DNA of 39,293 bases from Escherichia phage phiv142-3 (MN187550.1); one strand, 5' to 3'; counted from the stretch's first letter, positions 4,758-39,143 are shown. Made by a program: numbers and translations. Notes: generated from the sequence alone by a model not told the origin.

Positions 4758-4772
4758 TTACCTTTCAGGTAA
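4758..4772. promoter_or_regulatory. operator-like palindrome TTACCTTTCAGGTAA (site S1)
   Basis: Perfect 5-bp inverted arms TTACC/GGTAA around a 5-bp centre, in the divergent region between tailspike and the small antirepressor-like gene; flanked by palindromic TTTGCAAA. Confidence 0.6.
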
Positions 4773-4809
4773 TTTGCAAAACGTGCTGGATAGCAAACAA
4801 ATTATTTGA

Positions 4810-4829
4810 TACTGTATAAATATACAGTT
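4810..4829. promoter_or_regulatory. LexA (SOS) box TACTGTATAAATATACAGTT
   Basis: CTGT-N8-ACAG with AT-rich centre, near-identical to the E. coli LexA consensus; sits about 20 bp upstream of the ATG at 4849, inside the spacer after a TTGATA -35-like hexamer. Confidence 0.6.
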
Positions 4830-4848
4830 ATTGCATGGAGAAGATAAG

Positions 4849-5106
4849 ATGCAGCAGTATCACTATCCACTGGAAGACGGATTTACCGAAAGGATTCACA
4901 CGCCGGGAGGCGTCAGGTCACTGGTGGAAGGATCGCACTTGATGAAATTACTCCGGGATCTCGATAAGGATGGATTTAATGTCGATGGCCCACTTGCCGA
5001 ACTGACTGCACTGATTAACTACGTCACCAGCTCACAGATGTCTATGCGGGATCTGCAAACACATCTCGACTATTGTGCCGAACAATTACGAAAACAAACC
5101 AGATAA
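4849..5106 (+). CDS. small protein paralogous to the C-terminal domain of the downstream antirepressor
   Basis: 85 aa from the ATG at 4849 (GGAG 8 nt upstream); the track starts at a TTG at 4831. Residues ...LMKLLRDLDKDGFNVDGPLAELTALINYV...RDLQTH align with ...[29 protein letters not shown]...RDIQTH of the 218-aa protein. Confidence 0.55.
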   Translation: MQQYHYPLEDGFTERIHTPGGVRSLVEGSHLMKLLRDLDKDGFNVDGPLAELTALINYVTSSQMSMRDLQTHLDYCAEQLRKQTR

Positions 5107-5109
5107 GGT

Positions 5110-5152
5110 TTGCAATTACCAAATGGAGTGCTTATATTTACCTTTGCGGTAA
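5110..5152 (+). promoter_or_regulatory. promoter (-35 TTGCAA, 17-bp spacer, -10 TATATT) fused to operator S2 TTACCTTTGCGGTAA (5138-5152)
   Basis: Sigma70-like hexamers read from sequence; the last T of the -10 is the first T of the palindrome. Confidence 0.5.
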
Positions 5153-5242
5153 ATTTACATCGCACTCCTCTTGTGCCATAGTAATCGGGCACTGGCAAAA
5201 TCCAGTGCCGGGATTGGTCTCCCGGATTACTAAGTGGCGCAT

Positions 5243-5265
5243 ACCACGCCAGACGTGGTTTTTTT
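5243..5265 (+). terminator. intrinsic terminator (ACCACG-loop-CGTGGT plus T7 tract) in the antirepressor leader
   Basis: GC-rich hairpin followed by TTTTTTT; preceded by two more hairpins (about 5188-5226); about 160 nt upstream of the antirepressor ATG. Confidence 0.5.
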
Positions 5266-5423
5266 ATGCGTATAGCACAGTCATGCCAGAATTATGGTGG
5301 GCTGAATGGGGGTCCGAAAGGACGCCGGTACCACTTAGGCCGGTAAGACCAACTCCGTTCAGTTCACCACCATCTGATTGGTCTCAGCGGTGGTGATGTA
5401 ATTCGCTAAGTGGAGACGCCATC

Positions 5424-36346: not shown

Positions 36347-36595
36347 ATGAAAGGTGCATTAGGTAAGAAGGAACTCCTGGCGGTGGTGCCACTGTCATGG
36401 AGCACTATCGACCGTATGGAGCGCGCAGGTGAATTTCCTAAACGCTGGTATATCACTGACAAACGCTGCGCATGGAACCGTGACGAAGTTGAGCGTTGGC
36501 TTGATGAACGTCAGGCAGCAAGCCCGGCAGAGTTCCAGGGTAAAAAACCTCCTGTTCAGCAACGTGTATATCGTCCCGTGAGCAACGCTGCATGA
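36347..36595 (+). CDS. xis: AlpA-like excisionase / DNA-binding protein
   Basis: 82 aa; winged-HTH-like ...LLAVVPLSWSTIDRMERAGEFPKR...; located between the recombination genes and the integrase. Confidence 0.55.
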   Translation: MKGALGKKELLAVVPLSWSTIDRMERAGEFPKRWYITDKRCAWNRDEVERWLDERQAASPAEFQGKKPPVQQRVYRPVSNAA

Positions 36596-36736
36596 GTGCG
36601 CTGCTAAGGCACTGGAGCAAATGGTCAGGATGGTACTTATTCCTGGCCTCTGTTTCAGCATGGCTTTATCTGCTGGCATTAATTTTCAGAGAGGGTTGGA
36701 TTAAGTGAGAAAGTTAAGCCGACTTGAAAATATCAC

Positions 36737-37003
36737 ATGAACAAGGTTTCAATGCGCAGCCCTTCAAAGGTTGTTGCCGTTACTCCTGCGGCGATAGAGA
36801 TCGAAAAACGCGCGATTGAAAGAGAGAAAAAAGGGCAGTTCCGCATTGCCGCCCACCTTTGGCTTCAGTGTATGGATGTTGCTTCTGGTGATGTTGAACG
36901 TGCAAGGATCGCGGTTCGCAGGGACCAATGTATCACAAAAGGTAACGGCCTTCGCCGTGGCGACTATAGCGGCATAGGATGTTGCGGGGTGGTTTATGAC
37001 TAA
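36737..37003 (+). CDS. PerC-like transcriptional activator (prophage Pch-type)
   Basis: 88 aa; ...IEIEKRAIEREKKGQFRIAAHLWLQCMDV... resembles the PerC-family core (...GLWRRAATRWL...); an alternative start 15 nt downstream has an AAGG RBS. Confidence 0.45.
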   Translation: MNKVSMRSPSKVVAVTPAAIEIEKRAIEREKKGQFRIAAHLWLQCMDVASGDVERARIAVRRDQCITKGNGLRRGDYSGIGCCGVVYD

Positions 37004-37577
37004 GAAATACACACTAATCTATGCAGATCCACCCTGGGTATACCGGGACAAAGCCGCAGATGGTAATCGCGGTGCCGGTTTAAATATCCGGTTATGAGTG
37101 TGCTGGATATCTGCCGCCTTCCTGTGTGGGATTTGGCCGATGAAAACTGTCTGTTGGCCATGTGGTGGGTGCCAACACAACCACTCGAAGCACTAAAAGT
37201 TGTTGAAGCCTGGGGATTCCGTCTGATGACGATGAAGGCTTCACGTGGATAAAATGTGGTAGTCGACAACCAGATAAACTGGTTATGGGTATGGACACAT
37301 GACTCGCGCCAATAGTGAAGATTGCCTGTTTGCGGTAAAGGGAAAACTACCTACGCGCATTAATGCAGGGATCGTTCAGTCATTTACCGCACCGCGGCTT
37401 GAGCATTCAAGAAAGCCAGATGTCGTTCGTGAAAAACTTGTGCAATTGTTAGGCGATGTTTCTCGCATTGAACTGTTCGCCCGCCAGTCGTCTCATGTTT
37501 CGATGTTTGGGGTAATCAGTGCGAAGACCCGGCAGTGCAACTACACCCTGGATACGCGTTGGATATTGCCAGATTAA
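36996..37577 (+). pseudogene. MT-A70-family DNA adenine methyltransferase, disrupted by multiple frameshifts
   Basis: Methyltransferase motifs lie in three different frames: DPPW segment (MTKKYTLIYADPPWVY..., stops at ~37097), middle segment (MSVLDICRLPVWDLADENCLLAMWWVP...EAWGF..., stops at ~37250), and C-terminal segment (ORF 37299..37577: ...EDCLFAVKGK...EHSRKPD...IELFARQ...). Confidence 0.6.
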
Positions 37578-37638
37578 CAAATGCATTCAGCAATGCTCCG
37601 CTGTCACCAACAGACAACCAGGGGCGGGAGCGTGCTGC

Positions 37639-37833
37639 ATGAACAGGGCATCACCAGCAGATTTAAGAAAATGCCTTGAAACTGCAAACATGCTTGCACA
37701 CAGCGGGATCAGGTTTGTTCCAATTCCCGCTGTCACTGATGCTGAATTTGCAACACTGTCAGCAATATTCGAAAACAAAATTGAATCACTGGCAGCAGAA
37801 GCAGAGATGGAAGAAAATCAGCAGAACTATTAA
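37639..37833 (+). CDS. hypothetical small protein
   Basis: 64 aa from internal ATG (GGGAG RBS) of ORF 37519..37833; converges on the integrase gene. Confidence 0.4.
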   Translation: MNRASPADLRKCLETANMLAHSGIRFVPIPAVTDAEFATLSAIFENKIESLAAEAEMEENQQNY

Positions 37834-37836
37834 ACG

Positions 37837-39086
37837 TTATTCCCCCGCCATCCACTTCTCAAACTTCGACGGGGAGAACGGAATCAGATCCGTATGCTCC
37901 CCGTCAATCCATGAATCAATCATATCGGCCCACTGCTGCAACATGTAGGCGCGCTGTCTGGCGTATTCCGCTTTGTTATATACGGCGCGCACACCTTTCT
38001 GCTCATGTGCCAGAGCCTTTTCAATCCAGTCTGAAGGATAACCAGCCTCATGCAACAACGTACTGGCTGTACGGCGCATATCATGTACAGTGAAGTCCTG
38101 AATATGCTCACCATCTTCATTTATTATTTTCACCGTTCTGTCGATCAGAGAGTTCAGCGCGGCATTAGATAATGGCTTCCGGAAATTGTAACGACCAGGA
38201 ACCAGATATTCACTTCCACCAGCGCACATCTGCAACCCGACCAATATATCATGTGCCTGTTTAGGCAGGTAAATAACGTGCGCCCGGCTTCCCTTCATGC
38301 GGTCTGGAGGAATTGTCCATGTCCATTTTTTAAAATCTATTTCATCCCACGTTGCATTGGTGAATTCGCCCTTACGAACCATAGTGATAAGCACCAGTTT
38401 TAAAGCCATTTTCATAGTGCCCATAGCACCAATGGCATCCAGCGTGCGGAAGAACAGGCCAATTTCTTCTGGTGTCAGTGTTCGCTCTCGTGGTTTAAAT
38501 ATGGCGATAGACGAAGGTTTAATGTCAGCCGCAGGATTAAACAAACCATGACCACGGTCATTGGCGTGACGGTATACGCTACTGATGATCTCCCTGGCCT
38601 GCACTGCTGTTGCCCGGCCACCGCGTTCGACAATCCGGTCACACAAATCACGAACCATCGATGTGGTAATTTCAGCCATCATTTTATTGCCAAGAACCGG
38701 AAGTATGTCACGGTCGATCACCGCCTGTTCATTGCGCGGGTACTGTCAGCCAGGATGACGTGTTTCATATAACTGTCGGTATGTACCGCAAACGTCTCGG
38801 CACCACGAATCTTTTTGATACCGTCACGTTTAGCCGCAGCCGGTGACTGGCCTGCTTTAAGCAGCTTCTTTGCAGCAATCAGTTCTTCTCGCGCTTCTGC
38901 CAGGCTGATACCGTCACGCCCATACTGCCCGATTACCAGTGTTTCGCGGCGACCGTTGATACGGTAGTCATAGCGAAACGAGACCGTGCCTGACGTAAGC
39001 ACAGCTACATACAGCCCGTCACGATCGGAGACCTTGTACAGTTTGTCCTGCGGCTTGAGGTTTTTTAATTTTGTATCGGTAAGCAC
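37837..39086 (-). pseudogene. int: P4-type tyrosine integrase interrupted by a frameshift
   Basis: N-terminal arm-binding part (ORF 38718..39086, 122 aa, GTG start) and catalytic part (ORF 37837..38721, 294 aa, with HDMRRT...VYNKAEY active-site-like residues) are in different frames overlapping at ~38718-38721; together ~416 aa. A sequencing error cannot be excluded. Confidence 0.6.
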
Positions 39087-39128
39087 AATTCACCCGTATA
39101 GAAACCATTTTCATGACGGTATGAGAGT

Positions 39129-39143
39129 ATACCTTTAAGGTAA
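39129..39143. promoter_or_regulatory. operator-like palindrome ATACCTTTAAGGTAA (site S10) upstream of the integrase start
   Basis: One arm mismatch relative to TTACC; about 45 bp upstream of the int start codon. Confidence 0.45.

Follow-up and report, generated by a model that had tools for sequence, protein, structure and literature searches.

A dispersed TTACC-N5-GGTAA palindrome in the prophage of Escherichia phage phiv142-3 as the probable operator of the prophage's own repressor

The DNA analysed here (Escherichia phage phiv142-3, MN187550.1; the whole stretch of 39,293 nucleotides is referred to as the window) carries the same 17-bp att core (ATTGAGTGGGAATGATT) at both ends (1-17 and 39277-39293) and thus represents an integrated prophage whose ends fall exactly on the two att core copies. 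The aligned DNA of the 5-kb stretch that was compared is 97-98% identical to that of the epsilon15-like podoviruses phiV10, PAS61 and ZX5 (Uetakevirus), the window being in reverse orientation relative to those records, and the window is a complete phiV10/epsilon15-like prophage. It encodes a 194-aa repressor (Rep), a divergently transcribed 76-aa Cro-like protein and a small antirepressor (Ant), and ten separate loci, spread between 4758 and 39143, hold copies of the 15-bp palindrome TTACC-N5-GGTAA (TTACCNNNNNGGTAA), the probable role of which as the operator of Rep is considered below.

Ten exact copies of the palindrome are present in the window, against 0.02 expected from dinucleotide-preserving shuffles, and there are 15 matches with no more than one mismatch, against 0.70 expected. 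When all 5-Nx-5 palindromes in the window were enumerated without bias this one came first with its 10 copies (the next unrelated palindrome had three), and it ranked top in a de novo palindrome scan of 4/4 Uetakevirus genomes. The operator set consists of the 10 exact copies, four copies with one mismatch and one with two, all of them non-coding (Table 1). A further one-mismatch match, at 1787, was rejected as an operator since it lies inside the first lysis-cassette gene and is the single match that chance predicts. The first-pass annotation of this DNA had listed about 14 copies, all non-coding; each of its coordinates is correct, although the set was incomplete at terS, where the site at 26454, in tandem with that at 26472, had been missed, and its chance figure of 0.1 is, if anything, too high. 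The non-coding location holds for all the copies that it listed and extends to phiV10, in the curated record of which (93.5% coding, 6.5% non-coding) 12 of 14 homologous sites are in annotated non-coding DNA and the other two lie in a 5' extension of terS that is not annotated as coding in epsilon15. The annotated terS starts of phiV10 (41-715) and PAS61 (12387-13061) are upstream of both operators, so that the sites seem intragenic, whereas in epsilon15, SPC32H and Tyrion terS starts just past the second operator; the former starts were probably mis-called.

The host was represented by 200 kb of E. coli K-12, in which one exact copy was found, within yacL. This bears on the idea that the phage has tapped the regulon of some host transcription factor with this palindrome as its site, an idea to which we attach next to no likelihood: the identical motif does occur in phages of E. 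coli, Salmonella, Enterobacter and Klebsiella, hosts that share many regulators, and its core resembles the sites of NarL (7-2-7) and NtrC (GCACC-N5-GGTGC) with changed spacing or one changed base, but the K-12 copy is inside coding sequence and the same half-sites are found in Pseudomonas and Psychrobacter phages exactly where repressor operators are expected. Compared by eye, NarL was rejected as the ligand on account of its 7-2-7 spacing and NtrC because it requires CACC, not TACC.

The palindrome was followed through seven genomes (the window, phiV10, PAS61, epsilon15, SPC32H, Enterobacter phage Tyrion and Klebsiella phage BUCT711) and is enriched to the same degree in the six relatives as in the window. 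Matches with no more than one mismatch (exact copies in brackets) number 14 (8) in phiV10, 11 (8) in PAS61, 15 (11) in epsilon15, 18 (10) in SPC32H and 15 (9) in Tyrion, and BUCT711, in which exact copies alone were counted, has nine. The slots common to the compared genomes are the terS pair (18 bp apart), the portal operon, the ant/tailspike interval, int, the early-left pair, the rep/cro triple, the site after the cro terminator and a pair at the DUF1064 or RuvC promoter. The 65 exact sites of the seven genomes give the consensus A-TTACC-wwWww-GGTAA-T, in which the half-sites are invariant through the selection of exact copies while the N5 centre is free to vary and its middle position is A/T in 98%. 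In these genomes neighbouring sites are spaced, start to start, by 62 bp (13 cases), 63 bp (1), 17-18 bp (8), 48 bp (4), 30 bp (2) or 76 bp (2).

The 62/63-bp pairs proved the most regular of these arrangements, as 14/14 of them bracket a sigma-70 promoter in one shared layout: the distal operator (O-distal) is followed by 19-20 nt, a -35 TTGAnn, a 17-nt spacer and a -10 the last T of which is the first T of the proximal operator (O-proximal). These 14 promoters match the sigma-70 consensus at 8-10 of 12 positions (10/12 for the early-left promoter), and an independent promoter scan recovers 33040-33068, 5110-5138 and 32263-32235. The single sites at 5138 and 6153 show the same fusion of -10 and operator as a paired O-proximal, the former at the promoter that drives isrK, C4 and the AntA-domain gene; the promoter at 6153 was read by eye and fell below the scan threshold because its -35 matches at just 3/6. 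At int the same GGTAT mismatch is found in every relative; through it the right half-site reads as a -10-like TATACT (TATAAT in epsilon15). The portal and tailspike operators are placed otherwise: weak promoter-like sequences, which keep just the GGTAA half-site, lie 50-70 bp downstream of them (at the portal, reading in the minus direction from 23656, the second motif described below at 23617-23604, a GGTAA half-site at 23598-23594 and then TAATTT). A strict sigma-70 scan found no promoter at the portal, tailspike or terS operators, and the -35 candidates seen there by eye are weak.

The first-pass annotation had likened the set to the stoperators of mycobacteriophage L5, sites within transcription units at which bound repressor would halt elongating RNA polymerase rather than prevent initiation. 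As an explanation of the set as a whole this is highly improbable. L5 stoperators are asymmetric 13-mers, orientation-dependent, within transcription units and bound by monomeric gp71, and the likeness is that many repressor sites lie beyond the immunity region. The window sites are perfect inverted repeats and because of this cannot be orientation-specific; no operator is within a gene, Rep is unrelated to gp71, and the 14 pairs together with the single sites 5138, 6153, 32246 and 39129 overlap promoter elements in fixed register, so that a downstream position inside a transcription unit is not what is found for most of the set. The elongation-blocking reading is best accommodated by the terS pair (11 nt past the strong terminator 26523-26506 and 2 nt ahead of the terS ATG at 26451), by site 31909, which comes after the cro terminator, and by the full portal and tailspike operators, which lie upstream of a putative -10 and not on it. 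Since the strong terminator is followed by the terS pair without a good promoter between, this pair may indeed be a roadblock.

Table 1. Operators, regulators and other features of the window (positions counted from its first letter; operators are copies of TTACC-N5-GGTAA)
Feature	Position	Strand	Remarks
Operator, exact (TTACCTTTCAGGTAA)	4758-4772	.	Divergent ant/tailspike interval; LexA box 40 nt downstream; homologues phiV10 20877, epsilon15 19896 (annotated repressor site), SPC32H 20013, Tyrion 21776
Operator, exact, proximal type	5138-5152	+	Promoter TTGCAA (5110-5115)-17-TATATT (5133-5138); -10 ends on first T of operator
Operator, exact, proximal type	6153-6167	+	Promoter TTGCAG (6125-6130)-17-TACTAT (6148-6153); then AGGAGG ribosome-binding site, ATG 6180
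Operator, exact	23656-23670	-	Upstream of gp3/portal late operon; epsilon15 homologue is annotated repressor site 2931-2947
Tandem operator pair	26454-26486	-	26472-26486 exact; 26454-26468 (TAACCACCATGGTAA) one mismatch; 18-bp offset also in phiV10, epsilon15, PAS61, Tyrion
62-bp operator pair, DUF1064 operon promoter	29902-29978	-	O-distal 29964-29978 and O-proximal 29902-29916, both exact; -35 TTGATT 29944-29939, -10 TTTAAT 29921-29916; ATG 3 nt past O-proximal
Operator, one mismatch (minus strand GTACCTCAAAGGTAA)	31909-31923	-	Just past cro terminator 31957-31938, ahead of replication genes; adjoins second motif 31890-31903; homologues phiV10 33112, Tyrion 35365
Tripartite OR-like region	32246-32308	.	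Cro-like gene to rep; three sites
Site of tripartite region, one mismatch	32246-32260		Overlaps predicted P_cro (-35 32263-32258, -10 32240-32235)
Site of tripartite region, two mismatches	32277-32291		
Site of tripartite region, exact	32294-32308		Nearest rep
62-bp operator pair, early-left promoter	33006-33082	+	O-distal 33006-33020 and O-proximal 33068-33082, both exact; -35 TTGACA 33040-33045, -10 AATTAT 33063-33068
Operator, one mismatch (minus strand TTACCTTAAAGGTAT)	39129-39143	-	Upstream of int
Rep, 194 aa, proposed ligand	32364-32948	+	PDB 5D50 homology, domain layout
Cro-like protein, 76 aa, possible second ligand	31979-32209	-	phrog_35, transcriptional repressor
LexA box, perfect (CTGTATAAATATACAG)	4812-4827	+	Directly upstream of ant
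ant, antirepressor	4849-5106	+	87% identical to SPC32H Ant
isrK small RNA	5189-5265	+	Rfam 67.7 bits
C4 antisense RNA	5290-5374	+	Rfam 61.2 bits
AntA-domain gene	5424-6080		
Second-motif copies	1985-1998, 4688-4701, 4718-4731, 5097-5110, 23604-23617, 29922-29935, 31890-31903		
Third palindrome, GTGAC-N2-GTCAC	7086-7097, 24300-24311, 26565-26576		Each beside a rho-independent terminator
Conserved 'transcriptional regulator', 115 aa	26573-26920	-	phrog_536; immediately before late operon
tRNA-Arg (anticodon TCT)	23993-24069	+	
Open reading frame, 344 aa	33260-34294	+	phrog_1376 (function unknown)
Lysis-cassette slot	1979-2020	-	
Integrase, split	37837-39086	-	

Rep had been put forward as the ligand and is the right candidate. 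It is a full-length homologue of SPC32H Rep (5D50_A, E = 4e-42, residues 1-190 aligned to 2-197), most strongly conserved in its N-terminal 70 residues, and is 100% identical to the repressors of phiV10 and ZX5. The Pfam search gave a match to HTH_3 and none to Peptidase_S24; it is HTH_3 and 5D50 that Rep matches, not a C1 family. By homology its layout should be an N-terminal DNA-binding, a middle dimerisation and a C-terminal tetramerisation/Ant-binding domain, the order given for SPC32H Rep in PMC9986798, where the C-terminal element is the 'TetDloop' and where repression by this protein is said to be a mechanism that 'has not been extensively characterized'. The earlier description of Rep as a tandem helix-turn-helix protein does not stand, as only the N-terminal domain binds DNA and residues 106-147 of SPC32H Rep, which give the HTH_3 match, are the dimerisation domain. 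PMC9638917 describes SPC32H Rep as a tetramer on palindromic DNA, the pairs of DNA-binding domains coming from different dimers, and Ant as breaking this tetramer. Overexpression of the ZX5 repressor abolished free phage and lowered endolysin transcripts by 99.99% and holin transcripts by 99.97% (PMC9782041).

The SPC32H/epsilon15 system of repressor, operators and antirepressor is thus matched in its repressor homology, in the identity of its operators at syntenic slots and in its small LexA-controlled Ant working without an autocleaving repressor. For SPC32H (Rep-Ant, PDB 5D50 and 5D4Z) the likeness takes in the full-length repressor homologue, the LexA box at the ant promoter and the same operator motif and slots; the difference is that the published SPC32H work concerns the protein mechanism, while the genome-wide site set and the 62-bp bracketing geometry come from the present analysis. 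Ant is far more strongly conserved than Rep (87%, with SPC32H Ant, against 42%). Downstream of the operator/promoter at 5138, the isrK-like small RNA and the C4 antisense RNA come before the AntA-domain gene; judged from the sequence, isrK-C4-AntA would add to the LexA-controlled Ant another antirepressor module, one of the P1 immI/Gifsy-1 type.

Two independent comparisons outside the genus link the half-site to the repressor DNA-binding domain. In PseuP_224 (a lambdoid siphovirus of Pseudomonas) the N-terminus of cI and the N-terminal domain of Rep share 39% identity, and a pattern search found four copies of TTACC-N4-GGTAA (0.26 expected), all confined to the two sides of cI; an inverted-repeat scan of its immunity region found nothing, the N4-spaced sites requiring the pattern search. 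In pOW20-A (a Psychrobacter phage) the CI N-terminus is 38% identical to Rep (E = 1e-10), Cro is 49% identical to the Cro-like protein of the window (E = 1e-14), and four copies of TACC-N5-GGTA (0.31 expected) occur only at OL and OR. Both phages thus have a lambda-type arrangement, with TACC/GGTA half-sites, divergent repressor and cro genes, multiple sites between them and no sites beyond the two repressor flanks, although their repressors are longer than Rep and are annotated as cI/CI-like. The window shares with them the multipartite operator between divergent repressor and cro genes (32246, 32277 and 32294), the 17 and 30/31 bp spacing of which is conserved in epsilon15, SPC32H, phiV10 and Tyrion, in keeping with the first-pass comparison of this trio to OR1-3. 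It differs in the spread of the cassette over about 10 further loci, so that confinement to the repressor flanks is lost, as the first-pass contrast with lambda had it, and in the C-terminal part of the repressor, which is a tetramerisation/Ant-binding module. As the half-sites of PseuP_224 and pOW20-A stand only at the flanks of the repressor gene, the immunity cassette is old and normally lambda-like; the peculiarity of Uetakevirus is that the operator was copied to about 10 further loci.

The same comparisons bear on the Cro-like protein, which could be the principal ligand of the dispersed sites, shutting off early and accessory transcription during lytic growth while Rep would act only at rep/cro. 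The protein is a predicted transcriptional repressor that weakly resembles the N-terminal domain of Rep over the helix-turn-helix region (searches of PDB and Pfam gave no match for it), its homologue in pOW20-A adjoins the TACC-N5-GGTA operators, and it is 80% identical to its epsilon15 counterpart, as against 42% for Rep, the half-sites being likewise conserved. Nevertheless we consider this very unlikely: the Rep N-terminal domain is also well conserved, homologues of that domain accompany the same half-sites in PseuP_224 and pOW20-A, the identical repressor by itself silences the lysis genes when overexpressed (PMC9782041), epsilon15 labels the sites 'repressor', and binding by both proteins, as in lambda, is likelier than binding by Cro alone.

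The epsilon15 label is found in record AY150271.2, which has seven features entered as 'protein_bind: repressor / lysogeny' (12-27, 2931-2947, 19895-19911, 32479-32494, 32554-32570, 32616-32632 and 35906-35922). Each of the 7/7 coincides base for base with a copy of TTACC-N5-GGTAA, and they are dispersed as in the window, before terS, the portal operon and the tailspike gene and at the early-left and RuvC promoters. Dispersed repressor sites are therefore already known as a control system of this phage genus, and the set is not new. The repressor-site consensus in the epsilon15 genome study is reportedly ATTACCWDWWNGGTAAT, in agreement with that derived here from the 65 exact sites. A full-text literature search by the letters of the motif gave nothing relevant, and an epsilon34 paper by overlapping authors makes no mention of epsilon15 operators. 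The two phages belong to one genus and share the palindrome, a homologous repressor (42% identical overall) and matching slots at terS, portal, tailspike, early-left and the RuvC/DUF1064 promoter. They differ in that only seven of the roughly 15 sites are annotated in epsilon15, the rep/cro trio and the proximal partner of the RuvC pair being unlabelled, and in that the window prophage carries additional operators, at a moron and the isrK-C4-antA module, but not the full lysis-cassette operator.

Taken together, this supports the genome-wide regulon of the phage's own repressor proposed in the first-pass annotation, and we put at about 0.85 the probability that the palindromes are operators of the prophage's own Rep, of the SPC32H/epsilon15 type and mostly promoter-occluding. 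Several points weigh on the other side. The late slots (portal, tailspike and terS) have no convincing sigma-70 -35 beside the operator. A 62-bp span corresponds to about 210 Å of DNA, whereas about 100 Å separates the dimerisation-domain pairs of the Rep tetramer (PMC9986798), so that a single tetramer could bridge it only if bending were strong or the linkers flexible. The homology with pOW20-A points to sharing of the sites between Rep and the Cro-like protein. The epsilon15 annotation may itself be a prediction, and a second conserved palindrome stands on several of the same promoters, so that this picture of control is incomplete.

If Rep is the ligand, two of its N-terminal helix-turn-helix domains would occupy each palindrome, one for each TTACC half-site, and as a tetramer it would carry two such pairs. 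In the commonest design, in which the last T of the -10 is base 1 of the operator, bound Rep would span about -7 to +8 and exclude RNA polymerase. O-distal at the early-left and DUF1064 promoters has its centre near -62, on the same face of the DNA at a distance of about six helical turns, and we infer that one tetramer, or two cooperating tetramers, may clamp the promoter between the paired operators in a loop. The rep/cro trio would serve the switch and autoregulation, and the single sites would guard the ant/tailspike interval, the isrK-C4-antA module, the moron, the portal operon and int. On induction Rep would stay uncleaved; DNA damage would take LexA off the ant promoter and Ant would strip Rep from all sites simultaneously.

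The closest functional parallels for such a regulon are the C1 operators of P1 and the conserved inverted repeats (CIRs) of phiC31, more than the L5 stoperators. P1 C1 acts on asymmetric 17-mer operators that are scattered and overlap promoters in a plasmid prophage, with an antirepressor in induction and immunity; one repressor thus serves many dispersed operons there too, and P1 immI resembles the C4 antisense RNA and ant module beneath operator 5138. The resemblance is functional only, since C1 is unrelated to Rep, which matches no C1 family, and the site here is a palindrome and not an asymmetric 17-mer. The phiC31 CIRs, bound by the c repressor, are symmetric operators of about 17 bp at many genome loci beside early promoters, and differ in host and protein family; phiC31 is not known to have an antirepressor arm.

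As a discovery the set carries little weight, the exact sites being annotated in epsilon15 and the repressor family crystallised. Its value lies, first, in a complete conserved list of about 15 sites per genome that includes the rep/cro operators omitted from the epsilon15 record; second, in a promoter-operator geometry invariant in 14/14 pairs, which is DNA-side evidence, hitherto missing, for a looping or cooperative tetrameric Rep; and third, in the case it makes for repressor-regulon expansion, an old OL/OR-confined cassette having been copied onto nearly every promoter of one genus. Phages of the phiV10 type serve as reporter phages for the detection of E. coli O157, and knowledge of the Rep-controlled promoters would be useful in engineering them. 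What interest is left attaches to the way in which paired operators bracket their promoters and to a second motif.

This second motif is a near-palindrome (AACCATATATGGTT; AACC-N6-GGTT, core CAWATNNGGTT) that adjoins Rep operators in 7/7 Uetakevirus genomes. The window has five copies of it (0.65 expected), or seven with the palindromic pattern (1.29 expected), and there are 3-7 copies per Uetakevirus genome against one in 200 kb of E. coli. At early-type promoters it occupies the spacer directly upstream of the -10. The portal and tailspike copies are shifted upstream by another 10 bp, which puts them over the -35 position, and N5-GGTAA comes after them. Four known elements were rejected as its identity: integration host factor (IHF; the consensus TT is missing), the DnaA box (8/9 in one copy only), the extended -10/TRTG element (TG offset by 2 nt) and a GntR-type TGGT-N3-ACCA (half-site order reversed). 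An attempt to tie the Cro-like protein to the second motif through distant homologues was also abandoned, as its sole homologue outside the genus, that of pOW20-A, sits with TACC-N5-GGTA.

The third palindrome, GTGAC-N2-GTCAC, is also over-represented and is found in genus-conserved slots before terS, after terL and after the last tail gene, and not at all in 200 kb of E. coli. With its copy at 26565 as the -35, a promoter is predicted that leads directly into the terminator 26523-26506, an arrangement that resembles a late promoter with a terminator awaiting antitermination. The conserved phrog_536 protein is encoded where lambda has Q and has a ribbon-helix-helix (RHH)-like N-terminus and a Cys-rich C-terminus (CGKCGEKVPVNSCPCNGDSQC); Pfam and PDB searches gave no match for it. 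This protein may be a late regulator and is also a candidate for the ligand of the second or the third motif. For the second motif the candidate factors are this RHH-like/Cys-rich regulator before terS, the Cro-like protein and Rep itself in a second binding mode. Two layers of control, a second-motif factor repressing early and activating late promoters together with Rep tetramers in 62-bp mini-loops, would make up an undescribed circuit for the lysis-lysogeny and early-late decisions, a tentative scheme that we regard as doubtful.

In the lysis-cassette slot the full operator present in phiV10, epsilon15, SPC32H and Tyrion is lost from the window, where a remnant GGGTAAC half-site is followed by the second motif and then TATCAT; the lysis genes of this prophage may depend on upstream control. 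The tRNA-Arg gene lies, as in SPC32H, in an 820-bp gene-poor stretch from terL to the portal operon. A TTGACA read by eye at 23634-23639 is directed toward it and operator 23656 covers the corresponding -10 position, so that the tRNA may also be Rep-controlled. The 344-aa open reading frame directly after the early-left promoter is extra, being absent from phiV10, and explains the part of the megablast match that was left uncovered. The integrase is split into two open reading frames by a 1-bp indel relative to PAS61, with a stop after about 122 aa, and this is either the mark of a defective, locked-in prophage or a sequencing error.

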